64,000 nt of DNA from Paraspadella gotoi (taxonomy: Eukaryota > Animalia > Chaetognatha): contig CM119267.1 in assembly GCA_051294375.1 (NCBI GenBank), forward strand, positions 15,726,105 to 15,790,104, read 5' to 3'. Both the position numbers and the translations under genes were made by a program. This document shows, piece by piece, positions 14,002 to 63,750 of this stretch. Under the pieces are notes generated by a model that did not search any database, was not told the DNA's origin, and worked only from the letters and a program-made list of their open reading frames with translations. Each line of letters starts with the position of its first letter. The stretch's first letter is position 1.

Positions 14002-15536
14002 ACAAAGTTTGGCTCTAGTAGTGAGAATTAAATAAGCGCCGCTCACCCTTTACGACTTTTTCTGAAAAGTTTTCCTTCAGCACCGTTTTCAACTTTGTCA
14101 GATCGTAAACGGTTTTGGTCCTTATGGGTGTCAAGTCCTTGTTGGTATGTTTTGTCAAAGCGCGGGTCATGACGCGAGCTCGAGACATTCGCACGCGGTA
14201 ATCTTCTGCGCGCACATCGACGCCGCTAACGAAGAGCGCATCGATGACGTGAACTGTGGAGAATATTCGCTGACCTTTGCCTTCACCGACGCGTTCCTTA
14301 ACGATTTCTAACATAAATGTAAAATGATAAGAGAAATTTTATTTTCGAGCCAATTTATAAGTATTATACATTGAAATACAAATGAAAAATTTCGCAAGAC
14401 GTCACAACAAAAGAAAATTAATGAAAAAATCTTAAAAGCACAATGATATACATCGTTCAATATTAATTTAAAAAAAAAAGATTGATGCGATAACGAATGA
14501 TTGATGAGATAACAAACTTTTTATTGATACGATAACGAATTTTTGGTTGAAGTGATAATGAAAAAAAATTGATTGATGCGATTTATTGACTGAATGAAAC
14601 GAATTGAATGAAACGAATTGAATGAATCAAAATGAATTAAATGAAATGATATAAATTAAAAGAAATTAACTGTATGAATGAAATGAATTGAGAGAATGAA
14701 ATCAATCGAATGAAGAAAATAATAGAATTTAAATTAATTCAATTTAAATACAGAAGGTATGGCGACGTGAATAATTAGGATAAGGAGACAGGTTTAAACG
14801 GGATACATTTAATACAATGTATGTATGTACAAGGAGTTAAAATTAACAGTAATAAACGGTGAACGAGAAAGTATTTCGAGTTGTGTCTACCATCGTGAGC
14901 TTGTCCGCTTTTAAAGCCAAAAGTTGGCCCAAGTGTCCTCAGCGCAAGGTCAGTGGCTAAACAACCACCGGTTACCACGGTGGCCAGAGACATGACCCAC
15001 GTGACCTAAAGCGTCCTCCATAAAGGCTTCATATTATAAAATGTGGTACTGTGGCGAATCCTAAATTCGCCTCCCGTATAGCTTGGTGAAACTCAGCTCG
15101 TCCCATTGGCTTGGACAGCTAAGTACTCGTTCACCAACCGTGAGTTCCGGGTTCAATCTCCTCTAGGTCACGTTGGTTAAAGTGTGATGGTATCGGCATA
15201 AACACGCCAGTGACATGGGGTGGTCACTGCAGGTCCAAAGCCTTGAGCGCTCGCTGTCGGGAGATCACACATGTCCCTCCGTTGCCTATACATACCCCGT
15301 TTTTGTGACCAGAATCTGTTCCCACCAAACTACTCACGAGAATTTAATGAAATTACATTTAGAGTGTTAATGACTAAATAAATGGAACTACCGCGGCGAA
15401 TTTTGATATTCAACCCCTGACAAGAGATACAGGGCCCTGGGGGTGGACCCCTGGGTTGCCAAAAAATGCTAAATTTTTTTTTTTTTCCAAAATTTTTTAG
15501 TAGCATCAGGTGCATTGACGTTTTAAAAGGCTATTA

Positions 15537-18500: not shown

Positions 18501-21500
18501 AAAATGTGAATATACTGCCAAGTAATATTAAATAGCTTTAGTTACAAGGAATATTTGTTCGAGGCACTTTCTACTGACGTGGGTATGCCCTTTGCGCAAT
18601 AAGAAATCCATTTGACATTTTCGGAAATAACTACATCTTCCTCCGTCCAAGTCTTCTCGAAATTCGTTTCGAATCCTGTCGGTTCAACGCCAAGGCCACG
18701 ACGACCCTAGTCCCAATTGAAGCCAAAAAAGACAAAAGTTTTATTTTTTTTCTGGTATTACTGGGAAAACAACTTAATCGTTGTGCTACTAAAAAAATCT
18801 AGCATCATACCTAATTACCTAGCGATCTTTCTAAAAATTACATATCTGATACTTGACTATTTTAAAAGACAAGAACTGTACTCTAATGTGTTGCGCCGCA
18901 GTGACCGTCTTATCACATAATAAACGTCTTATGGTTATTCAATTATCTGCAAAGTTTCAACATAAATCACCAAATATTATACAAAAGACGAAATTATACT
19001 TTAGCCGACCGGGGTTTTGGCGTCTTTTAAAAAACTACTTCAAAATATTTTTTAAAAAATTTAAAAAAATTATTATTTAATTACCTTAATCCTAAAAATA
19101 TTTTAAAAAATCTTAAAAGCATAAGGATCGTCGCAATCGCATGATAAAAATCTGGATTGACGACAAATTTTAATACTAAAAAAAATAAAATTTAAGAAAA
19201 AAATAATAATTTATAAACAGAAAGAAAAATTTTATTTTGCGATTGTCAATTAAAAAAAATAATAAAGTACTGAAGAAAATTAAAGTGACAGTTTCTGAAA
19301 AAAAATAAAAAAAATGAAAAGTTTTTTTTTGTCGTTGTCAATTGTCATTGTCAAATAAACTGATTATCAGACGCAGCCCCTGAGAAAATAAAACGAAATA
19401 AATACCCGATATTGCGATAGCAAAATGATAAAATGTACAAATGCGAGTTCAATCCTAATTCAATTTTTTTTATAATAAAAACGCAGAGAGAGAGAAAAAA
19501 AAAGAAAGAAATCAAAAGGCAGCAGATGCAGCAGGAGAAAAGAGAGAAAGAGAGAGAGCCCCTTTAGAGCCAGCTGCAGACTCGTTTTTTTTTCCCTATG
19601 AATCAGTGACTAGGGAAAAGAGAAAGGGAGAGAGATATATAATTAAAAGAGAAAAGAGAGAGAAAAAGAAATATAAAAAATAATAACTGTCCTGACTCAA
19701 TTTTAAGCACATCGATGAGAAGCTGTATATAAATTTTCAGGTTCATACACCCAAATTTAACTATAAAAAAGGCGATCTATAATTTGGAACGCCGACGACA
19801 ACAACGGCGACGCCACTTATGTGCAAAACCACAGTAAAATCGTCGCAAACGCAAAGCGATTGCGATGATAAAAATTATTACTTAATTACCTTAACCCTAA
19901 ACCCTCTTAACCCTAACTACCCATAACCATTACCCCTAAACCTTTGGGAGCTCAAATGATTTGAACAAAGACGACGACGACGACGACGGAAACGACGACG
20001 AATACAACGACGTATACAACGACGAAGACGACGATGAAGTCTTTGTACTTTGTGACCCGTAGTACCGTAGTGGTCAATAAGAATGACCTGTTTTACCTGA
20101 ACCTTAATGATCTTGTTATGGCTGACCTTTTTTCTCAGCCAATGTAAATACGAGTTGTTATTGTTATTATTTTTATCTTTTTGGCTTTTTACTCTGTTTT
20201 TGATAATATACGTTTTTTCTTCATCACGAAAAACACGCCTTGTGGCAGCAAGACTTAAAGCTGCCTAACTGCTGTCCGTCCTCAGCCTCGTCTCAATGGC
20301 TGAGCAGGCTAAATCATCTCATTCCATCCGTGCATCCCGGGTTCAATCCCTGGGTATCCCGGTTCTGGCTTAAATGTGACGGTGCCGGTATAAACATGCC
20401 AGTGACAGGAGGCGGTCACTGAGGGTCCGCAGCCCCTATGCCAGTTGGTGAGATACCCCGCGCCCCGGGTATCACAGGCTATCCTCCCGTTGCCATAAGT
20501 GGTGAGCCCGACTCTCGAACACGCAACCGCTGCGCACCGTGCGCCCACGCTTACGTCGCTTAGGGTATGCATATCACGCCTATGCCCTACTTCTCTGGTA
20601 ACGCTCCAGACTCGCTCGCTCGCTCGCCCGCTCGCTCTCACTATGGCAATGAGATCAAAACCTTCTCTCAGACATCTCCTCAGGATTGAGGCCCCTGTGG
20701 AGAAGTCTGGTGGGGGGATCCTGTGGCAGCAAGACTTAAAGCTGCCTCACTGCTGTCTGTCCTCAGCCTCGTCTCAATGGCTGAGCAGGCTAAATCATCT
20801 CATTCCATCCGTGCATCCCGGGTTCAATCCCTGGGTATCCCGGTTCTGGCTTAAATGTGACGGTGCCGGTATAAACATGCCAGTGACAGGAGGCGGTCAC
20901 TGAGGGTCCGCAGCCCCTACGCCAGTTGGTGAGATACCCGCGCCCCGGGTATCACAGGCTATCCTCCCGTTGCCATAGCCTCGAAATTTTCTCCAAATTC
21001 TCGTTTTGAGTCACCGCAAACCCCCCTAACTCCGATCGCTGAAAGTAAAATTAACCCAAAATACATGCACCAAAATCTTTTAATGATACCTTACTAGTCT
21101 GCCAAGTATAAGTTAAAAAAACTCAGAATTTATTGCGACAAAACTTATGAAATTCTAAGTCACGTGATCGCTTTTTAAGATCACCTAACTGCACAAGCAT
21201 GATATATATGCACGTTAAATGTGCCTAACTTTCCTACTAAATTTATGATGTATTACCCGTGTTATGAGCAATTTTAACTATGAGATAAATCGAAAAACAC
21301 ACTGAAACACCGACCGACCCAAGTTTCTCCGCGGTGCAATAGTTATAATATAATTGCATAATGCTTGCTACGTTACCCGACCCAATAGGAACCTTATGAG
21401 TTGATTCTTTGACGATCTCCGTTCGCCCTTGCTGGTACTTCCCGAGCCCTTTCCCTTCTTCATATCCCATTTTGGCCATCATTTTGGCTCCTTTTTCGGA

Positions 21501-23886: not shown

Positions 23887-26800
23887 TTAGTTGGCAAAGT
23901 GTTTCTTTCCGTAATCGCTAATCACGCAGACGTGGTTGAGGTCGCGATAATTTTCGTTATAGTCGAATGCGCAGCCCACGATAAAAACGTCAGGAATTTC
24001 GAATCCGACATAATCTATAAAGGGGGTAAAAAATTCCAACTTATTTTTTGACCGATGTTTTATAGCAGTCATAAGCATAATTTCCGAAAAAAGGAATAAG
24101 GTAAAATGCATCATTATTAAAAAAAAATTAAATCTTAAAAGTATAGTGATCTTACCAGACGTTACTATCAAAGAAAATTAATAAAAAAATCAAAAAAAAA
24201 ATAGTAATTGATTTATGTAATAGTAATTGTTAGATGTAATAGTAATAGATTGATGTAATAGTAATAGATTGATGTAATAGTAATTGATTAATGAAATAAA
24301 AATTGATTGATATAATAATAATTGTTTAATTTAATAATAATAATAATTGATTGATGTAATAATAATTGATTAATGTAATACTAATTGATTGATGTAATAA
24401 TAATTTATTGATGTAATAATAATTTATTGATGTAATAATAATTTATTGATGTAATAATAATTTATTGATGTAATAATAATTTATTGATGTAATAATAATT
24501 TATTGATGTAATAATAATTTATTGATATAATAGTAATTTATTGATATAATAATAATTTATTGATATAATAGTAATTTATTGATATAATAGTAATTTATTG
24601 ATGTAATAGTAATTTATTGATGTAATAGTAATTTATTGATGTAATAGTAATTTATTGATGTAATAGTAATTTATTGATGTAATAGTAATTTATTGATGTA
24701 ATAGTAATTTATTGATGTAATAGTAATTTATTGATGTAATAATAATTTATTAATGTAATAGTAATTTATTTATGCGATGATAACCAATTATTGATGCGAT
24801 GATAACCAATTATTGATGAGAAGATAACCAAATATTGATGCGATGATAACCAAAAATTGATGCGATAATAACCAAATATTGATGCGATGATAACCAAATG
24901 ATTGATGCGATGATAGTCATTCATTGACGCTTTGAGTCATTAATCGTAAATAAAACAAACGCGTATATGAGAGAGAGAGAAAAAGAAAGAGAGAGCGAGC
25001 GAAATATAATTAAAAGTCCAGCCGCTGCAGAGCTTTTAACTCGTTTTTAGACGAATCAGAAGAGGTAGCGACGGAGAAAAAGAGAGACCAAGCGAGAGCG
25101 ACATAATTAAAAGAGAGTGACATATAATTTTTAGCTTCCTATGATATCACACTTTTATAATAATTACTCGTAATTCGTCATAATTTTTATATAAAATATA
25201 GATATAATTGTTTTGTAAATAAAACAAACAAATGCGTGTAGCAATATGAAACATGTGAACCTAAAAGATCTTGCTGATTAAAAGCTATATCTAAATTTTT
25301 AGCTTCCTATGGTTACACACTTTTATAATTTTTAATTGTAAAAAAGCGTAATGACGACGACGACAACGGTCAAAAGAAGCAGAAGCGAACTAAAAAGAAC
25401 ATACCTGGAACGTATCCGATGCTTTTAGGCGTTCTCTTTAACGCCAGTGAAACAACTTTTACTGAAGCAGGTTCTACTTGCTTTAATATCTCCAATAATT
25501 TAATCATCGTTCGTCCTGTGAAAAATTAATAATTAATAACTTAGAGCCTGAGATTTATTTTAGTTAATCATTTAGAGAGGAAAAGCGAGAATGGAGATTC
25601 GTAGAAGCTCAATAAGCTGTCCTTATTGACATTAAAGAGTGTGGTCAATTTTGATTCCAAACTTTCACTTCACCCTACTGGTCATTGGTAGATTGTCCAA
25701 TAACTAATTATGGCAACGGGTAGACGTGTGAGATGCCCGGAGTGTGCTCCGGGCTTTTGACCTGCAGTGACCACCCCATGTCACTGGCGTGTTAATGCTA
25801 ACACCATCACAGTTAACCAGCGTGACCGTGGGGGGATTAAACCCGGAACTCACAGTTTGAGAACGAGTACTTAGCAGTCCAAGTTAATGGGACGAGGTGA
25901 GTTTCACCAATCACCAAGCTATACGGGAGGCGATTTTATGATTTGCCACAGAACACCTATGGCGCCGGAGGTAGCACGAGCTTCTCCCAAACCAAAGGAC
26001 TCGGGTTCGCGCCCTGCTTATTCACACAAAGCGCCACGGGGCGTCTAACCCACCAGTAGTGACGGACTACAGCCGGATCCGAAGTTCTGGATCTTGTGTG
26101 CAACGGACCGCGACCTGCTCGCGGCATAGTCTTCCACAATCACTCTCCTTTCGGTTGCACCTGTATCGACGATGTCTTCGACGACCAATATGTGTTTCCC
26201 CCTCAGGCGATGAAGCTTGTCTCCACCAACTACCTTGACTTCGCCGGTCGACTCATCATTCTCGTAGCTTTTAAGCCTGATGAAGTCCATTTTGACTGGC
26301 ACGCTTGCATTGGGAGAGTATGAGTTGATTTTTTCTATCTTTTTCAACAAATCACCGAAAAATCTGAGAATGTCAACAAAATTGTTTTTGCAATGATGGA
26401 GCAAGTTGAAAACATTGTGGGAGCGAACCTGTAAGCACCCTTTAACGTGCATAAAGCGAGAACTGATTCGCCCGGAGTATTGTTGAATACGCTTAAGTAA
26501 TGTCGGTGAATGTCAAAGGCGAGTTTTTCGGTTCTGTCATCAAGCAAACCCGCCGGAATCATCACTACGTAACAAAAAAATTATTTGTAATGAATGGATC
26601 AGCACCGTAATGCCCTGACCCAACGGGAACCAAGCAAGGCGGGTGATGAAGCCTATATTGTTAACCCGGCGGCAGAAGTCTGTCACAGAGCGAGATAAAA
26701 GTTATTCAATCGGTTTGGGTTTGCTCGTGACTATTCTTATAATTATATTCTTATCTGATTCTATGACTTTTAAAAGGCGATAGACCGACGTGAGTCTATT

Positions 26801-28321: not shown

Positions 28322-30503
<2,182 letters not shown>

Positions 30504-39600: not shown

Positions 39601-41018
39601 CAATCATTCCGGTCCTGAAATAGTCTAATTTGTTTACTTTAAAGTTTAAAGTAAATATTTTTTACTTGGGTTATAGAATGCCGTAAGTTCGCTCACCGGA
39701 TTTCGGGACCTTTCGTGTCAAGAGCGATAGCAACGGGGCGAGGAGGGTCCAATTGCGACGCCGCCTCACGGGCGTTGGCAATAGTCGTAGCATGATATTC
39801 ATGGGTCCCATGAGAAAAATTTAACCTCACGATGTTCATACCTTTTGGAAGAATTTTTTTTCTCATAAAGTTATCGTTACAACTTACATAAAATGTACTT
39901 GCCCGGTGGCCGCCAAGCAGTTAAGTAGGACGGGACGCTTAACCCAAATATATAGCATAGGGCTAAAGCCAGGTCCTAAGCTCTGGGACTGCTAATTTAT
40001 ACTACATATATTATAATAAATTATTCTCTCTTGAATAACTATTGAATATCAAATAACCCTAATAAAATTCAAAAAATGCTTTAGAAATTCCCGCCAAGAA
40101 AGCCGTTTTGAATTCTTTTTACTGTGCTGCACAAAATTACTTGGTAAAACGATCACATTTCCGTTATAACTTTTACATACAAAATTACCGACAAAATGTT
40201 TACAATAATTTTTATTATAGTATTATGATAATATCGGCATTACTCATTTTTAGAAATGTATATAATAATCATACTGTTGGGGGGGATGTATGATGGACTA
40301 AAATCCACCAACCGTTCATCAGCGGCCATTGGTGCAGGAGGCAAGTCATTCGCCTCCCAACCCAAAAGTCCGGGGTCCTAGCCTGGTGGTCACCTAGCAG
40401 TTAAGAGGGACGGGGTGCTTAACCCGCCTGTAACACGATGTTACAGCCTGATCCGAAGCTCAGGGAGTGCTTATAATGAACGGTTCTATCCCTAACTCAT
40501 AACAATTATTACTGTCTATTCAGTTGTTTATTTATCGAAGTTAAAAACAGGCGATGATATAAAAACATTTCCAAATTTTTTGTAAACAATCCAAATGAAT
40601 AATAAAATGACGCTAATACACAGTGACTTAACACTTAACATCACCAATAAATTAACCATAAAATAATGCTTAAGCCATGTGCTGACTCCGCTTTCCTTGC
40701 AGAACAATGGAGGAGCCGAGTTTTTAGTTTTAAATGATGGTGTAAATATAATATTATACAAATTACAGAATCTATTTTAATTATTTTTTCTAAAATTTTT
40801 ATTTTAATAAACTCACCGGCATCCATAAGCTTCTTCAACATTTCAACAGATTGCGTCGCTGGACCAATGGTACAAATAATACTGGCCTTTCTTGCAATGG
40901 CTGGGGAAGAATCAATGTCCAGCAAACACATATGTTCAAGGGCCGAATTTGCATCAGCAGCGTCAAGCTGCTGCGGATGGATAGCCAAATCGGACTCCAT
41001 GGTCGCAGAGAAGCTCAT
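36624..41018 (-). CDS. PKM: Pyruvate kinase (multi-exon)
   Basis: [68 protein letters not shown]; last exon [17 protein letters not shown]. Confidence 0.95.
36892..37439 (-). mobile_element. Helentron/DINE-1-like element, family H1
   Basis: Same termini and internal blocks as 19110-19869. Confidence 0.55.
39901..40032 (+). mobile_element. Divergent, 5'-truncated family B copy
   Basis: GCCCGGTGGCCGCC then GCAGT...CCAGG-TCCTAAGC-TCTGG-GACTGC. Confidence 0.55.
40287..40522 (+). mobile_element. Family B copy in a pyruvate kinase intron, preceded by a G7 tract
   Basis: Near-identical to 54274-54508; twister-like core 40397-40470. Confidence 0.7.
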
Positions 41019-49180: not shown

Positions 49181-51961
49181 TTAATTTTGCTTCATAGCAA
49201 TCCTTTTGTCGCGTTCTTCGGCCACTGACATTCTCACGCCTTTGCCTTCCGGAAGTGAAATCCATTGTTTGGACCCTTTCCCAATGGTGAAAATGTAGTT
49301 GAGCCTGAGAGTAAAAATTATTGAAAATTCGCGAAATTCACACTAAATGATACATGAAAGTTAACGCTAAGTTTAGAAACCTGGTGGCGAACGAATGACC
49401 GGCGGCGTCTTTAACGTGAACGATGTCGAAAGATCCAGGATGTTTCTCTCGATGCATTATGGTGCCGACCCTGCCCAAGTTACGTCCCCCTGTCACCTAT
49501 CGCACAATTAAAGTAAATACATAAACTTCAAATTGAAGGTTATAAAAAATGCGAAAAAAATGATGGCTCATCGTCGCACCATGCAAATGTTTCCAGATTC
49601 GAACTTAATGAAGTCGGTTATTTTTCCTGATGCAATGTCCACTTTGAGACAGTCGTTCGCTTTTATCAACGGATCAGGATACCTAAAGAACGAGAAAAAA
49701 TCTTAAAAGCAATCGCATTAAAAAAATATTGACCAATGACAAACTTTGATACTCAAAAAATCAAATTTGATATCGTAAAACGAAGTTTTATAAATAACAA
49801 ATCTGGCTTAATATATCAAAAAAATACAAGGGTTGTATGAGAGAGCTCGTTTTTGGACGAATCAAAGAGGCAACCGACTGAGAGAAAGAGAGAGAGCGAC
49901 ATATACAGAAGGCTTCATATTATAAAATTAGGTACTATGCCTATGGCAACAGCCGAGTTGCCTGTGATGCCAATTGGAATGGGGCATTTCACTGTTGGCT
50001 TTAGGGGCTACCGACCCTCAGACGTCTTCTGTCACTGGCGCGGTTACCCTAGCACGGTTTCGCTTTTTTTTCGCAGGAACAGGTTGAAAACTAGAAGTTC
50101 TCTCAAATAAATAATGGTTAAGTAACAGTTAGAGAATTTGAAAATAAAAATAATTTTTAAAATTTATCTTATTGATTAGCGCACGGAAGCGTTAAAGATT
50201 ATTTTATTACTATATAAATTTTAAAATTTTTTTTTAAATTTTTCAAGTTTTTTTAATAGGTTCTAGTAGAGCTTTAAAAGTTAGATAAAGGTTATTAATA
50301 CAACTTTTAAATTTTTTTTGTTTTATTGATAAAAAATTTAAAAAACCATAAAATTTAGCTGATGATGATGATGATGATAATGATGATTTTTTAAAGTTTT
50401 CTATTTTTAACCAATTTATTGTCAAAATTTTAAAATATTGTAGTACTAACTTTGATTTAACTTTTCAAGCTCTATAGGAATCCATTATTAAAAAATAATT
50501 TTTTTTAAAAAAAATTGTCATCTTATATATTAATAAATATTTAAAAGCTTCAGTGCAACAACCCAATGAACTAATTAAAAAAGTTACATTGAAAATCGAT
50601 TTAGTAATAGAAAATTTTTTTGAGAGAACTCGAAGTTATAAAAAGTGTTCAATTTTGGCTCGCCTTACTGTGGAGTGTGGATGGAACGCAACACTTAGGA
50701 TGGTGCGTTCCCCCAATGGGATTGGATGAACGATGGTTTAAGTGAGGCAGTGTGAATATACTTCCACAGTACCCGTTTTTTGGGACCAGAACACTTTCCG
50801 ATAAAACTACTGGACCAAATTAATTGAAATTTGGTATCATGGAGAATTTCAATATTTGACCTCTGAGCCGAGATATATTGTTTTGTTTTGAACGGTTTCA
50901 TAGACGTTTACTCTTCCACAAAAACTTAATTATTACCACAAAAATATTAGTTTACTTTAATTTTCAGCTTCCTGAACATCAGCGGTTGAAGTTAGATTTA
51001 AATTGGAAGTAAAACGATGAACCATGCATCTTCAAACCATGCTTAAGTATTAAAAATTCATCAATTTTAGTTCTAAAATGTTTTTTATATTTTAAAACGT
51101 CAATGAATATGATGCTAGCAAAAAATTATAAAAATTGGAAAAAACATTTTTTTAGCTTTTTTTGGTTGAATTTCAAAATTCGCCCTAATAACGTCATTAG
51201 GTCGAAATTCAATGGGGTAGTTTGGTGGGAACAGATTCTGGTCACAAAAAACGGATACCTCATTTTATAATATGAAGCCTGTAATTAAAAAAAAAGATGT
51301 ATAAATAGAAGAAATTTGTTTTCTTTATATAAAATGTAAACGAATCACATTTAATTTATCACCTCATCAGTTTTCAAGGACCTTGATGATAATATACATC
51401 TAAATTAAAAAATACAAATAATATAAAAAAGCGATCTATAAATTGGAACGCCAACGAAGACGCCATTTATTGGGGCCATCATTCCATAATCGTCGCAAGC
51501 ACAAGCGAATAACTTTACCTAATGGTCCGTCCATCCGTGGTGATCAAATAAGGTATTCCTTTTGGGCCAATCGACACTTTTTTAACGATGCACAACTTGT
51601 AAGATGCTTCCTCTTTAGAAATGCGATGCACCTTGTATCTTCCCTTGACATCGTAGACGAGGCGAAAATTCTCGCCAGTCTTCTCCATTTGGACCACATC
51701 CATGAATCCGGTGGGGTAAGTATGATCGGTGCGGACACGTCCGTCCACCTTCACTAATCGCTGGGCCAGGATGTTTTTGACCTCTTGGTATGTGAGGGCG
51801 TACTTCAGACGATTTCTCAGAAAGAGTGCAAGCGGAAGACACTCTCTAAGCTTGTGCGGACCCGAGGATGGACGCGGAGCGTAGCAGCCACCCAATTTGT
51901 CAAGCATCCAATGCTTGGGCGCCGCCACGCGCTTCATATGCTTTCGAGGACCTCGAACCAT
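49181..51961 (-). CDS. RPS4: 40S ribosomal protein S4 (4 exons)
   Basis: [22 protein letters not shown]...DGRTIR|YPDP...[11 protein letters not shown]...[15 protein letters not shown]. Confidence 0.97.
49906..51281. mobile_element. Same MITE family, with nested insertions
   Basis: TIRs at 49906 and 51261-51281; further TIR copies near 11638, 15022 and 31856. Confidence 0.7.
49942..50063 (-). mobile_element. 3' part of a third twister-LTR subfamily, degenerate
   Basis: Minus strand: GCGA-AA-CCG-TGCTAGGG-TAA-CCGC-GC-CAGTGAC...AGGG-TCGGTAGC-CCCT...ATCACAGGC...GTTGCCATA. Confidence 0.7.
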
Positions 51962-53755: not shown

Positions 53756-54785
53756 TCAGGAGTCCACCTTGACGGGAGCTTCGGGGCGGAATAATTTTAT
53801 GTGGACGGCCGAGTTAAGACGTGTCTGGACTCTTGGCAAGCGATCCAAATCCTAAAGAAAATCCCCCGACGAAATCAATAATGACTCCTTCTCGTAACAG
53901 CGTCCGCGTAACAATAAAAAGTAACCTTATAGACAATGTCGTCAACTAGGGAGACCGTAGCCGTCCTGACGTGGAATTCGACGGAGCCACGGTTATTTGA
54001 TTTGAGAGCAAGAGCAATATTAAGGGCGCGCTTGATAGCTACGCCAAGCCCGTGAACGTAGACAATTTCGCCGAGGTCCAGCAGTTTTTGGCAACGATTC
54101 AACTGTACCTACAGAGTACGATCAGAAGGGGGTTTTTAATTCAATTTATCGAAATTAAATTTTGAATAGTAAAGTTTATTTAAGGGAAAGTGGAGATTTT
54201 GTTTAAAAAGTACTACTTGCATGGATTATTATGGAAAATTACAAGCGATGTTCTGAAAACACGCATAGATTTTATGGTGGACTAAAATCCACCAACCATT
54301 CATCAGCGGCCATTGGTGCCGGAGGCAAGACATTAGCCTCCCAACCCAAAGGTCCGGGGTTCTAGCCCGGTGGTCGTCTGGCAGTTAAGAGGGACGGGGC
54401 GCTTAACCCGCCTGTAACACGGTGTTACAGCCTGATCCGAAGCTCAGGGACTGCTTATATTGAACGGTTCTGTCATTAACACTTATCAATAATTACTGTC
54501 TCTTCAATTTATTGTAAATAATTATCAGACTTGACACAAAACCATAACTACTTGGGGTGATGATTATATAAAAATTGTCTTCTATTGCTACTTCAGAAGC
54601 AACCCTTATTACATCTCATAATTGTTAACGCAACGCAACGCAGATACCTTGAAGTGGGTTTTTCGAGTGACGTAAACGTCGTTGTGTTCTCGAGGAAAGG
54701 AACGCGGAAGCCGTTTTCGAAGGAGAAATTCTTCTCTTGAAATTACATTATTCACCGACTTTACAGACCGTTTCGTTTCTGCCAT
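53756..54785 (-). CDS. POP7: RNase P/MRP subunit Rpp20 (3 exons)
   Basis: LRKRLP...NDVYVTRKTHFK|VQLNRCQKLLD..EIVYVHGLGVAIKRALNIAL...TATVSLVDD|..RLNSAVHIKLFR. Confidence 0.9.
54274..54508 (+). mobile_element. Family B element: tRNA-like head plus twister-like RNA (most complete copy)
   Basis: tRNA-like 54306-54377 (GCGGCCA/TGGTCGT acceptor stem, CCGGG-GTTCTAG-CCCGG T arm), then GCAGT-TAA-GAGG-GA-CGG-GGCGCT-TAA-CCC-GC-hairpin-CCTGA-TCCGAAGC-TCAGG-GACTGC (54381-54454). Confidence 0.7.
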
Positions 54786-56164
54786 ATCTCGTCAATCATA
54801 CTAATTATCCTTTTTGTTAAAACCGCTTTCCTTACATGCAGAACTTCACTGAAAATGAGCAAGAAAATAAATTACGTACATACTACATTAATCAAAAAGT
54901 CTTTTTAAAAAATATTAAAAAACGAGACAAAATTTTTAAATATTTTACATGACTGGACTACAGGCCGTGCAGAGCCAGAAGGATAAGTCTCATTACCTAT
55001 TTACAGAGTGTGATTAATAGTACAAAATTGGACTATAACAAAATTGGCCTCCAGTCTACCAAAGCACAGGGGAAGGCTATAAATTTTTTGACATTGTCAG
55101 GCCATAACTTTTCACTTTTAAAAAAACTCCATCTATTGAATAGATTTTTCTGATACAATCGATGCACTTTTGTTTTTTTTGGTATTTAGAATCTTGCAAG
55201 TAAAAGAGATTATGATATTAAAGCCTTTTGAAAAAACTAAAGTTTGTACTGATGAGAATTTGAACGGCTTAAGCAATAGGGCGTTTAAAAATAACAAAAT
55301 ATAACAAATCGAATAAGGTACATAGCTATTTTAATGTAAACATGTCTGTAGAATTTGATGGTGATGACCATTTTTTTGTATTATTTTATCTTTCTTATCG
55401 AAAATGACGATTTTTAATGTATATAAAATTGTCATAAAAAAAAACAAACTAAAATAGTTATGTACCTTATTCGATTTGTTATAATTTGTTATTTTTAAAC
55501 GCCCTATTAAGCAACGAATATATAATATAAATACAAATTTGAATTTTTTCTTCCTTCCCTTTTATAAATTATAAAAAAAACGTAGTCTATATCTATATAT
55601 ACTATAGACGTCACTTTCTGAACAAAAGTCGACTTTTAAAGCTGGGATATCATATGGGTCTCAAAAATGGAGGCACCTAAGGCTAACTTTGGAACTGATT
55701 GGGATACAGGAGCCTCTCACCCGTCATTACTGGACCTCACACAGATGCCTGTAAGCGGATTCCTGATTACCATGCTAATTGTCATGGCAACGTGAGTCCG
55801 ATCCCCGGACGTGGATTATCGCCAAGGTATCCAATTTATCGAAACAAAGATGGAGTAATACAGGTAGAGTGAGCTGGTTGTGCTTTTAATGCCATCAAGA
55901 CATCACTGACTGACTTTCAGTAATTAATACTATAAAATAATTGATAATTAAACCATCGTCATCTCGCACGATTCCAAAGAGTTGTGCAATTAAAAATCAA
56001 CAGTTATCATGTGATAACATAATAGACATATTAGACATAAGTAATATCAAAATCAAAAGACTAGTAGTGAATCGCTGGAAATTACTGGAAACCCCAATAC
56101 AATTGAACCTTTTGTTGACACCATAAAAAAGAAATTTTATCGTATGATGATACATTAATTCCTG

Positions 56165-62927: not shown

Positions 62928-63534
62928 ATAACTCTTTTTAGCAATCCGTATATTTGCACTTTAAAATGCTTTTCCCAAAACATGAAATATTTGATGTAGT
63001 AAAATGTTAATTTAAATTGTTGGACCCTTGAGTTATACCAATGAAAATATGACGTTCGTTTTCAATATTAAACTTGATGTGAACAGGAGCCGACCGAAAG
63101 GCTGTAATTCTAACCTTTTCTTCAATCAGTAAGGAGTTCCGTAATCCAAAATTTATTTATCCATCATACTTATTACTTAATCAATATTTACTATCACTAA
63201 CTAGTGAAGCATAGTATAACATTTAAACATTTATAAATGCATTGCATAGGCAATAAATTATTTTTTTTAAAACGCAATCAGATATCCCATAAAAAGTTAT
63301 CTCCACATTTGGATTCATTTCAACATTTCAACATTTGGATGATAATTGGGTTAAATAAGGAGAAAACCATAAAAATCATCATTATACCATAATTTTTAGT
63401 TTTGCTAATTTTAATCGATAAAACAAAAATTTAGAATTCTTGCAATAATACTTTTTATTTTTTCAAGCTTTACCAAAATCCGTTTTAAAAATTATGAATT
63501 AAAAAACATTTTTCTTATGATTTATAATAATACT

Positions 63535-63750
63535 ATGGACTAAATTCCACCAACCGTTCATCAGCGGTCATTGGTGCAGGAGGCAAGTCATTCGTCTCCC
63601 AAACCAAAGGTCCATGGTCGCCTAGCAGTTAAGAGGGACGGGGCGCTTAACCCGCCTGTAACACGGTGTTACAGCCGGATCCGAATCTCAGGGACTGCTT
63701 ATATTGAACGGTTCTGTCACTAATTCATAACAATAATTACTGTCTCTTCA
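63535..63750 (+). mobile_element. Family B copy with deleted B box and L4 change AAGC>AATC
   Basis: Aligns to 54274-54508; core 63625-63698. Confidence 0.7.

Follow-up and report, generated by a model that had tools for sequence, protein, structure and literature searches.

A non-coding LTR retroelement of Paraspadella gotoi with tRNA-type Pol III boxes and a predicted twister ribozyme in each LTR

Can an animal LTR retroelement carry, and transpose by means of, a ribozyme other than the hammerhead? In the literature, retrozymes of plants have LTRs and type III hammerheads, whereas those of animals are non-LTR elements with type I hammerheads. We have analyzed a 64,000-nt stretch of the Paraspadella gotoi genome (the window), in which a first-pass annotation had read a short element as an LTR retrozyme built on twister ribozymes. 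That annotation knew of no described twister-LTR element, and our literature search likewise found no LTR element bearing a twister. The observation itself is confirmed and its interpretation is partly supported: this is a Pol III-boxed animal LTR retroelement with a predicted twister in each LTR, which probably transposes as a retrozyme via a circle and a Gypsy-type helper.

The features are collected in Table 1. The layout first proposed (a non-coding element of 737 bp with LTRs about 98% identical, a GCCT duplication, a PBS and a PPT) was borne out. The LTRs are 98.4% identical, with three substitutions and one indel, and there was no Pfam match in the three stop-free frames scanned, out of four frames of at least 60 aa in the element. 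The TGG of the candidate PBS starts 2 nt past the 5' LTR, and 12 of its 13 nt match the end of honey-bee tRNA-Trp (Fig. S2, PMC10886601), which is not a host tRNA; in the commonest form, with T at 20510 in most of the contig depth of run X1, 11 of 13 match. An ARAGORN run over the window returned no tRNAs.

The element is a dispersed family, with many insertion sites and fixed LTR ends. At the LTR start at least 50 contigs of run X1 run on into unlike flanks, as do at least 60 at the LTR end, and agreement among the exiting flanks is 0.43-0.48 among the matches listed. Target-site duplications are present as 4-bp repeats at four of the seven insertions in the window (the full element and all three copies of family B, described below); no clear duplication is seen at the three old copies of family A. 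The junction from 20721 to 20241 was rejected as a circle junction, as it also occurs in DNA and is the joint between internal region and 3' LTR; its depth is 20,334 versus 105-245 for the eight X1 pieces listed, contig depth not being copy number. Run X9, guessed to be RNA, was rejected as evidence of transcription: the flank is covered, and loose ends run into unrelated flanks as in the DNA run. Pieces from X10 and X11, which carry other organism labels, reach a depth of only 2-13 and were not accepted as spread to other species.

Table 1. Features of the element and of related copies in the window. Ribozyme parts, cut sites and transcription signals are predictions.
Feature	Position	Strand	Basis or remark
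LTR retroelement, non-coding, 737 bp	20241-20977	+	
Target-site duplication GCCT, 5' side	20237..20240	.	sequence
5' LTR, 257 nt, TG...TA ends	20241..20497	+	LTR alignment; contigs depart at both ends
Box A, tRNA type, begins TGGCT	20297..20308	+	motif scan; fits Helenus box A description
Box B, tRNA type, in T-arm-like hairpin	20340..20350	+	motif scan; 43 nt after box A
Twister fold, P5 order, 5' LTR	20365..20445	+	descriptor, covariation, sub-threshold Rfam P1 match
Stem P5	20365-69/20441-45	+	
Stem P2', P2	20374-77, 20394-97	+	
Stem P3	20400-21	+	
Stem P4	20422-25/20434-37	+	
Pseudoknot T1', T1	20380-82, 20427-29	+	
Pseudoknot T2	20398-99/20432-33	+	
Catalytic G-A	G20378-A20379	+	predicted cut 20391^20392
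Self-complementary P1 linker, 8 nt	20383..20390	+	folding, copy comparison
Predicted 481-nt monomer	20392..20872	+	inferred; between the two predicted cuts
Internal region, 224 nt, non-coding	20498..20721	+	LTR alignment, ORF and Pfam scans
Candidate primer binding site (PBS)	20500..20512	+	tRNA 3'-end comparison
Polypurine tract (PPT), short, one T inside	20709..20718	+	sequence; 3 nt ahead of 3' LTR
3' LTR, 256 nt	20722..20977	+	with own box A, box B, twister
Box A and box B, 3' LTR	20778-89, 20821-31	+	motif scan
Twister, 3' LTR	20846-20926	+	linker 20864-71, predicted cut 20872^20873
Target-site duplication GCCT, 3' side	20978..20981	.	sequence
First T4 run past element	20987..20990	+	possible Pol III stop, this copy
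Family A, solo-LTR-like	15050..15290	+	62% identical to 5' LTR; twister core intact, cut U 15199; no clear duplication
Family A, solo-LTR-like	25709..25950	-	81% identical to 15-kb copy; core decayed at cut triplet, T1, P2; no clear duplication
Family A, third subtype, 5'-truncated	49942..50063	-	T1 paired, in different letters; catalytic G lost
Family B, solo LTR (40289-40522) with 9-nt purine-tract remnant ahead	40280..40522	+	GTTG duplication encloses both; twister order at 40405-40465
Family B, solo LTR	54273..54506	+	duplication ATTT; tRNA-Gly(CCC)-like part, then twister order 54389-54449
Family B, solo LTR	63534..63750	+	duplication ATAC; tRNA-like part with deletion; T2, P4 damaged

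The annotation had described a complete P5-permuted twister in each LTR. All parts are in P5 order where it placed them, and G20378 and the predicted cuts, 481 nt apart, are located as it gave them, but P1 is only 8 nt long and makes no hairpin. Stems P2 and P4, pseudoknots T1 and T2, and the conserved UAA, GA and L4 nucleotides are all present. A descriptor built from Table 1 of PMC8501958, after the element had been seen, finds three sites in the window in P5 order (the two LTRs and the 15-kb copy), versus none in 300 block-shuffled windows, and one in 20,000 LTR shuffles. At these three sites the catalytic positions of the published table are complete. A P1-order reading was rejected: there is no T1 partner, and the P1-order descriptor gives no site. 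The element shares with published twisters of types P1, P3 and P5 (PMC5408937) and with the Perere-3 T-variants (PMC8501958) the UAA cut, P2 to P4, both pseudoknots, the G-A, the P5 order of parts and a link to retroelements; it differs in its P1 linker of 6-8 nt and in T1 letters that are not CCC/GGG. Its twisters are paired and lie in LTRs, whereas the Perere-3 T-variants stand at a LINE 5' end.

Covariation supports reading the predicted fold as a twister. In four distinct window copies, which are related and from which the structure was also read, 92% of 89 cells (23 named pairs by four copies) are paired, and slid controls of the pair alignment reach 27-50%. Six pairs show two-sided changes, two each in P2, T1 and P4. 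None of 500 shuffles was as high for paired cells or for covariation score, and nine were for the number of two-sided pairs. T1 occurs in three letter forms, with pairing intact in each.

In the Rfam check that the annotation had proposed, no twister model matched the element at gathering score, an E-value search over 1 kb gave no twister match, and on 111 nt the best of 4227 families was twister-P1, at 18.8 bits (E 0.057) versus a gathering score of 67.2. Hammerhead families had no Rfam match on the element; matches to c-di-GMP-II, CrcZ, RsmY, P26 and TeloSII were set aside as chance, as were motif matches in metagenome contigs (4 loci) and viral contigs (6 loci), none of which resembles the element (best E 0.18). 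A sub-threshold score is what one might see if the ribozyme did not work and were a twister-like relic, or a structure related to packaging or priming without cleavage. The rudimentary P1 and the short P2 of family B (3 nt on one side) point the same way, as do competing predicted folds: the minimum-energy fold of a single copy differs from the twister, and P5 gets a probability of 0.0 in every full-length model, pseudoknots lying outside such models. Such a non-working structure is nevertheless very improbable: the catalytic positions are complete, and the variants listed for four runs at 3% depth or more, a listing dominated by one young family, leave the catalytic G, the cut site, P2, T2 and the loop side of T1 untouched. 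We have little doubt that active copies would be cleaved at U^A.

The window also contains six more LTR copies with a ribozyme, belonging to two families; the annotation had recorded neither these nor the Pol III boxes nor the self-complementarity of the P1 linker. A model made from four copies found the three family B copies, which it had not seen, at E 2e-4 to 8e-3 (window); its weakest match, at 28659-28704 (E 0.76), was dropped. The two families are about 50% alike and have an identical order of parts. Rfam gave no twister match at all in family B.

On motif evidence, the tRNA-like Pol III boxes would place the element with the Helenus TRIMs, class TRIMp3 (Kojima 2024, PMC10886601). Boxes A and B sit upstream of the ribozyme in the LTR. 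The Helenus motifs TRGCY and GGTTC are both found, 43 nt apart, and the YGG position reads AGG. A strict box B occurs three times in the window, twice inside the LTRs (0.002 of unit shuffles), and its hairpin has a probability of 0.6-0.7. A T3 is lacking from the element, as it is from 0.007 of base shuffles but also from 0.26 of dinucleotide shuffles; T4 is hence absent too (0.35 in shuffles). The lack of T runs is therefore weak evidence. ARAGORN at relaxed thresholds finds a tRNA-Gly-like cloverleaf in family B (in one of three copies relaxed to 90%, in two of three at 80%); it made no tRNA call over the tRNA-like part of the family A 5' LTR, and its calls over the twister itself at 70-80% were rejected as chance. 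Helenus elements are animal TRIMs of less than about 1 kb, a limit within which the element falls, and they share its 4-bp duplication, LTR boxes A and B, candidate PBS for a tRNA 3' end, PPT, several families per genome and solo LTRs. Pol III transcription of the published Helenus elements is likewise not demonstrated in that paper.

Many published Helenus LTRs, judged by eye, end soon after the tRNA part, often in a T run, whereas here some 150 nt with the twister follow it and there is no T run. In the sections of the Helenus paper drawn on here (PMC10886601), "twister" occurs 0 times and "ribozyme" once, in a reference, and no Helenus ribozyme is named; five short motifs, four from the family and one from a twister loop, are absent from the supplementary material compared. 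Two of its elements, Helenus-2_SyJa and Helenus-2_SyUm of Synergus wasps (Data S1), start their LTR with TGTGG, have the boxes followed by a ribozyme core, a tRNA-Trp-type PBS one letter from that of this copy, and no T4 in the LTR. They differ in an internal region of about 500 nt and in the core, which by eye is a type III hammerhead, unreported in those sections. A different ribozyme in the equivalent slot sits badly with the ribozyme being a passenger, with no role in transposition, that came with a tRNA-derived SINE already carrying a twister, from whose insertion the LTR would have arisen. Two-sided changes also keep the pairs across subtypes that are 50-62% alike, and if the passenger were active, the terminal repeat would be destroyed and selection would act against it. 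We hold such a passenger to be quite unlikely, even though a SINE2 insertion has been proposed as the origin of Helenus (Kojima, PMC10886601), twisters are known at the 5' end of RTE elements, and the core is damaged in three of the six copies that are solo or partial.

The P1 linker is 6-8 nt long across copies, too short for a full hairpin. The 8-nt form makes no hairpin alone and a self-duplex of -10.9 kcal/mol; within one copy P1 can form no more than two pairs, closing a 4-nt loop, and between two copies eight. The innermost two positions self-pair in all eight copies (background 0.143), these copies being related and of four subtypes; in the 15-kb and 50-kb copies only six of the eight linker positions self-pair. 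CpG decay can also produce a CG to TA change. With so short and self-complementary a P1, the 5' and 3' ribozymes may pair through the linker and swap strands to form a double twister, for and against which the chances seem about equal.

Folding support for such a double twister is mixed. Five models of the full-length transcript at 37 C give cross-copy pairing a probability of 0.46-0.89 for P1 and 0.39-0.74 for P2, and within-copy pairing 0.00; when forced, the swapped fold lies 10-17 kcal/mol below two single folds, and control hairpins pair within a copy only. Cofolding two copies of 20360-20450 leads to the swapped form with P1-P5 (-66.3 versus -54.4). Cross-copy P1 drops on cooling (25 C, 0.10; 20 C, 0.02), and three of four cofolds tested (the 15-kb copy and two family B copies) do not use the linker. 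Twisters remain active without P1 (PMC5408937), and a two-pair P1 is typical of them (PMC8501958). Dimeric hammerheads combine a weak stem and a palindromic loop, an arrangement that does better in dimers (bioRxiv 10.64898/2026.07.22.740005; PMC7229834); those of axolotl, whose tetraloop is palindromic, show better cleavage as dimers and are a precedent for a double fold. If two copies must pair, a cleavage assay of 20360-20450 alone could read falsely negative.

In the life cycle that we propose, RNA polymerase III most likely reads from a predicted start near 20290, inside the 5' LTR, into the flank, and the two twisters would cut out the 481-nt monomer. This monomer is predicted to fold better than any of 100 shuffled versions (z -2.8) and as a circle to be 62% paired. 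Cutting at both LTRs is likely; as it would remove the terminal repeat on which strand transfer depends, a circle would have to be the template. Loss of R and circular templates also make up the plant retrozyme model (PMC4918200). RtcB, which circularises animal retrozyme monomers in vitro (PMC7229834), would ligate the 5'-OH and cyclic-phosphate ends. A tRNA would then prime at the PBS, the second strand would start from the PPT, a Gypsy-type helper would carry out reverse transcription, and Gypsy integrase would insert the product with a 4-bp duplication. The annotation expected a helper sharing the LTR ends, which is probably wrong: Kojima (PMC10886601) reports no homology between the LTRs of TRIMp3 elements or retrozymes and their helpers, so the helper need not share them. 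A double twister, at the same even chance as above, would confine efficient cutting to wholly transcribed elements and hold the monomer ends together for ligation.

The twister might instead trim mainly at the 5' LTR or cut slowly, the terminal repeat being kept and the RNA reverse-transcribed as in a TRIM without a circle; the ribozyme would then define or protect the 5' end like the twister variants in Perere-3 LINEs. Ordinary Helenus and Cassandra need no ribozyme to transpose (PMC10886601), 5' processing is a known twister role in Schistosoma (PMC8501958), and in four of five full-length models the 3' P3 forms less often than the 5' P3 (0.07-0.25 versus 0.71-0.80). We consider this unlikely, as the ribozyme sequence is identical in both LTRs, tandem ribozymes lead to circles in plant LTR and animal non-LTR retrozymes alike, and linkers pairing across copies would form both sites at once.

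The circular route that we favour has its closest parallel in plant LTR retrozymes (Cervera, Urbina and de la Pena 2016, PMC4918200), which are likewise non-coding, with a ribozyme per LTR, PBS, PPT, 4-bp duplication, solo LTRs, a double cut that removes R (predicted here) and a presumed Gypsy helper. They differ in their type III hammerhead and a monomer of about 700 nt versus 481; their circles are demonstrated, whereas that of the present element is predicted from its sequence. A Nicotiana retrozyme appears to be Pol II-driven (PMC12029980), in contrast to the Pol III boxes here. The element thus has the two LTRs, PBS, PPT, 4-bp duplication, lack of coding and ribozyme motif per LTR of an LTR retrozyme; in the strict original sense of type III hammerheads it is not one, its fold being apparently a twister, but it would work like one. 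With animal non-LTR retrozymes and dimeric hammerheads (PMC7229834; bioRxiv 10.64898/2026.07.22.740005) it shares an animal host, tandem ribozymes and a small predicted circle. It does not belong among these non-LTR retrozymes, which are Penelope-linked tandem repeats with type I hammerheads and without LTR, PBS or PPT.

If the proposed reading is true, an animal LTR form with twisters breaks both rules of the retrozyme literature, and the combination of LTR, ribozyme and circle would be a general solution reached with different ribozymes. Genomic twisters, known for trimming LINE 5' ends, would gain a second role, and the element would be a natural example of the tandem-twister circle engineered in mammalian cells (PMC7229834). 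A double twister occurring in nature would add a new architecture to the known ribozymes and be the first natural dimeric twister. The element joins research on Helenus/TRIMp3 with that on retrozymes, two subjects that the Helenus paper, in the sections drawn on here, only mentions side by side (PMC10886601). We tentatively suggest, at somewhat less than an even chance, that the Helenus TRIMs hide animal Pol III-driven LTR retrozymes with an exchangeable ribozyme slot, whose twister form is a double twister with a palindromic P1 that serves as a full-length-transcript checkpoint for the unit circle. Since the motifs fall below Rfam thresholds, further such families may have gone unnoticed.

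The element is made up of two LTRs, 98.4% identical (3 substitutions and 1 indel apart), around an internal part of 224 nt that opens with 2 spacer bases followed by TGG and closes with a short purine tract. GCCT stands on either side as a target-site duplication (TSD), and the three stop-free frames scanned (of four of at least 60 aa) have no Pfam match. The non-coding layout with LTRs and GCCT duplication described in the first-pass annotation is thus borne out, and the observation itself is confirmed; the interpretation placed on it is supported in its anatomy, while the chemistry (cleavage and what follows) remains a prediction. Judged from sequence, the best explanation is probably a Pol III-driven animal LTR retrozyme that would transpose via a twister-cut circle with a Gypsy-type helper. 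Features of the region are collected in the table.

Features of the element and its surroundings (positions in the window)
Feature	Position	Strand	Remark
Element	20241-20977
5' LTR (LTR5)	20241-20497
3' LTR (LTR3)	20722-20977
Box A, box B	20297, 20340		tRNA-type, upstream of the ribozyme
P1 linker of LTR5	20383-20390
Twister descriptor matches	20391, 20872, 15199
Predicted monomer	20392-20872
Hairpin at LTR start	20241-20265, 15050-15070, 54273-54295		small, around a C-T-(T)-A-A-A loop, in all subtypes; stem letters vary between subtypes
Hairpin near LTR 3' end	20447-20484, 49965-49992		main and 50-kb copy; kept with altered paired letters; possible packaging or integration signal
Solo LTRs of the second family	40280-40522, 54273-54506, 63534-63750
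Third strict box B	18681		suggests a further SINE-like element
GC-rich, tRNA-box-like stretch	25960-26060	-	upstream of the 25-kb copy; suggests a further SINE-like element
Tandem repeat	24194-24818		from self-search; probably MITE-like or satellite DNA
Near-perfect palindrome, 178 bp	30013-30190		as above
Looser palindrome	55275-55508		as above
Open frame, 1568 codons	42162-46868	-	several RRM domains; residues 850-1568 without a relative at E 0.001

The Rfam search proposed in the first-pass annotation gave a divided answer. Among 4227 families, twister-P1 was the best match to 20350-20460 (18.8 bits, E 0.057), aligned over the half of the ribozyme that runs from the cut site to P4, with the other half upstream, as in a P5 permutation, but nothing in the window reached the gathering score, and a 1-kb search returned no twister. 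A descriptor derived from the domain table of PMC8501958 matched three sites; 300 block-shuffled windows gave no match, and 20,000 LTR shuffles gave one. Self-search brought out three divergent relatives, at 15, 25 and at 50 kb. Together with LTR5 they give 89 cells for 23 named pairs, 92% of them paired, and six pairs show two-sided changes (2 in P2, 2 in P4 and 2 in the pseudoknot T1); T1 occurs in three different forms among the four copies, all of them paired. These counts come from four related sequences from which the structure was also read. None of 500 shuffles was as high in paired cells, none in covariation score, and 9 of 500 in the number of two-sided pairs.

A covariance model of the four copies returned 9 matches up to E 1. 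Five are sites of this family (family A), and three at E 2e-4 to 8e-3 define a second family (B); the ninth was dropped as weak. Family B consists of three solo LTRs, 85-90% alike mutually and 49-55% alike to family A; all have a 4-bp TSD and the same order of parts. P2 is one base short in this family, and its ribozymes have no Rfam match. Eight ribozyme-bearing LTR copies thus lie within 64 kb, three with a damaged core. The solo LTR at 40280-40522 is preceded by a 9-nt purine-tract remnant within its GTTG duplication; since plain LTR-LTR recombination of a normal element would leave none, this points to a cDNA end that retained the PPT. Termini are TG...TA in family A and TA...CA in family B, each one letter from the usual TG...CA.

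Contigs of four sequencing runs were compared with 20120-20721, 2074 of them from DNA run X1. At least 27 X1 contigs depart into unlike flanks before 20240, at least 23 before 20241, at least 20 behind 20497 and at least 40 behind 20498, with an agreement among departing flanks of 0.43-0.48 among the contigs listed. Because the departures occur at both ends into unlike sequence, the LTR ends are fixed and the insertion sites many. The element has private changes, since its letters differ from most of the contig depth at 20334, 20439 and 20510 and from about half at 20514; two of these lie in or directly behind the PBS. At 20528, contigs of X1 and of a second run, X10, depart into one shared different sequence; the X10 contig begins with sequence resembling the 50-kb subtype, and full-length elements of that subtype, with a different internal part, probably exist. 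Among the runs that contain the element none is recorded as RNA, a result with no weight for or against expression. The host is an animal, to judge from the encoded proteins of the window (FBXL18-like, Tudor, RRM and C2H2) and a tRNA-guanine transglycosylase exon closer to rodent (54-57%) than to fungal proteins (36-49%; 36 hits). An FBXL18 cluster of chordates is among the Atlas look-alikes, at low recognition.

Each LTR carries tRNA-type boxes; two of the three strict box B motifs in the window fall in the LTRs of the element, and 0.2% of unit shuffles contain the strict motif. In family B, ARAGORN at relaxed thresholds gives a tRNA-Gly-like cloverleaf. Nowhere in the 737 nt do three T stand in a row, and T4 first appears 10 nt into the flank; Pol III read-through would agree with this, though the statistical support is weak. 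Boxes of this kind characterise Helenus, a group of TRIMs that combine tRNA-like LTRs with a presumed Gypsy helper and, in animals, 4-bp TSDs (PMC10886601), and the element shows the sequence features that define that group. The accessible parts of PMC10886601 name no ribozyme for Helenus; by eye, no twister is visible in any animal LTR of the available part of its supplement, and the supplement file as a whole lacks the five short motifs searched for. Directly behind box B, however, Helenus-2_SyJa-LTR and Helenus-2_SyUm-LTR (Data S1) have, by eye, an apparent type III hammerhead with complementary loops 1 and 2, of which the accessible text makes no mention. The file has five occurrences of the hammerhead core word, two in these Synergus LTRs and three in fungal entries without visible helices. 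The Synergus PBS, of tRNA-Trp type, is one letter from that of the element. Synergus Helenus-2 are probable insect LTR retrozymes, as read by eye from these sequences.

In the proposed route Pol III would initiate near 20290 and transcribe to the flank, and cleavage in both LTRs would free a monomer ending in a 5'-OH and a cyclic phosphate. This monomer has a better predicted fold than any of 100 shuffles. As it would have no terminal repeat, strand transfer would need a circular template, an argument made for plant retrozymes (PMC4918200); RtcB circularises animal retrozyme monomers in vitro (PMC7229834). A tRNA would prime at the PBS, reverse transcription would go more than once round the circle, and a Gypsy-type integrase would insert the product, giving the 4-bp TSD.

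The linker between T1', the partner of T1, and the cut is 8 nt long in family A copies and 6 nt in those of family B. By itself no linker folds into a hairpin; each is self-complementary, 6 of the 8 over their full length. The innermost two positions, unable to pair within a hairpin, are self-pairing in all eight of these related copies (background 0.143). Modelled at full length at 37 C, the linkers pair across copies at 0.46-0.89 and P2 swaps along, whereas P1 and P2 within a copy stand at 0.00; the forced swapped fold lies 10-17 kcal/mol below two single folds. Control hairpins gave no swap, and two free family A ribozyme copies cofold into the swapped form. Such a pair would mirror amphibian hammerheads with a palindromic tetraloop, which cleave better as dimers. 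Against it, cross-copy linker pairing falls at lower temperature, to 0.10 at 25 C and to 0.02 at 20 C, the linker is unused in three of four cofolds, P5 is missing from the full-length ensembles (models without pseudoknots), and twisters can function with little or no P1 (PMC5408937, PMC8501958). The chances that the two LTR ribozymes form one strand-swapped double twister are about evenly balanced. In an X1 sub-family the outer linker bases 20383 and 20390 are both changed (13% and 6% of depth), a change that would open the outer pair but leave the inner six-base palindrome intact.

Searches of mainly non-subscription full texts, to which Roth et al. 2014 did not belong, listed no LTR element with twisters, no animal LTR retrozyme and no natural dimeric twister, in line with the first-pass remark that a twister-LTR retrozyme is not known from animals. 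Reviews and a 2026 preprint, in their accessible parts, still place LTR retrozymes with plants and type III hammerheads, insect elements with such hammerheads are mentioned as work in preparation (PMC7761336), and twister circles in metatranscriptomes are of P1 types in the accessible passages. Also consulted, as far as accessible, were PMC5680766, PMC6765202, PMC13725137, PMC6154101, PMC12029980, 10.1101/2022.07.19.500677 and 10.64898/2026.07.22.740005. With its activity predicted from sequence, the element would work like an LTR retrozyme, although it lacks the hammerhead of retrozymes in the strict sense. More tentatively, with the chances leaning somewhat against it, it may represent a Helenus lineage with an exchangeable ribozyme and a double-twister checkpoint.
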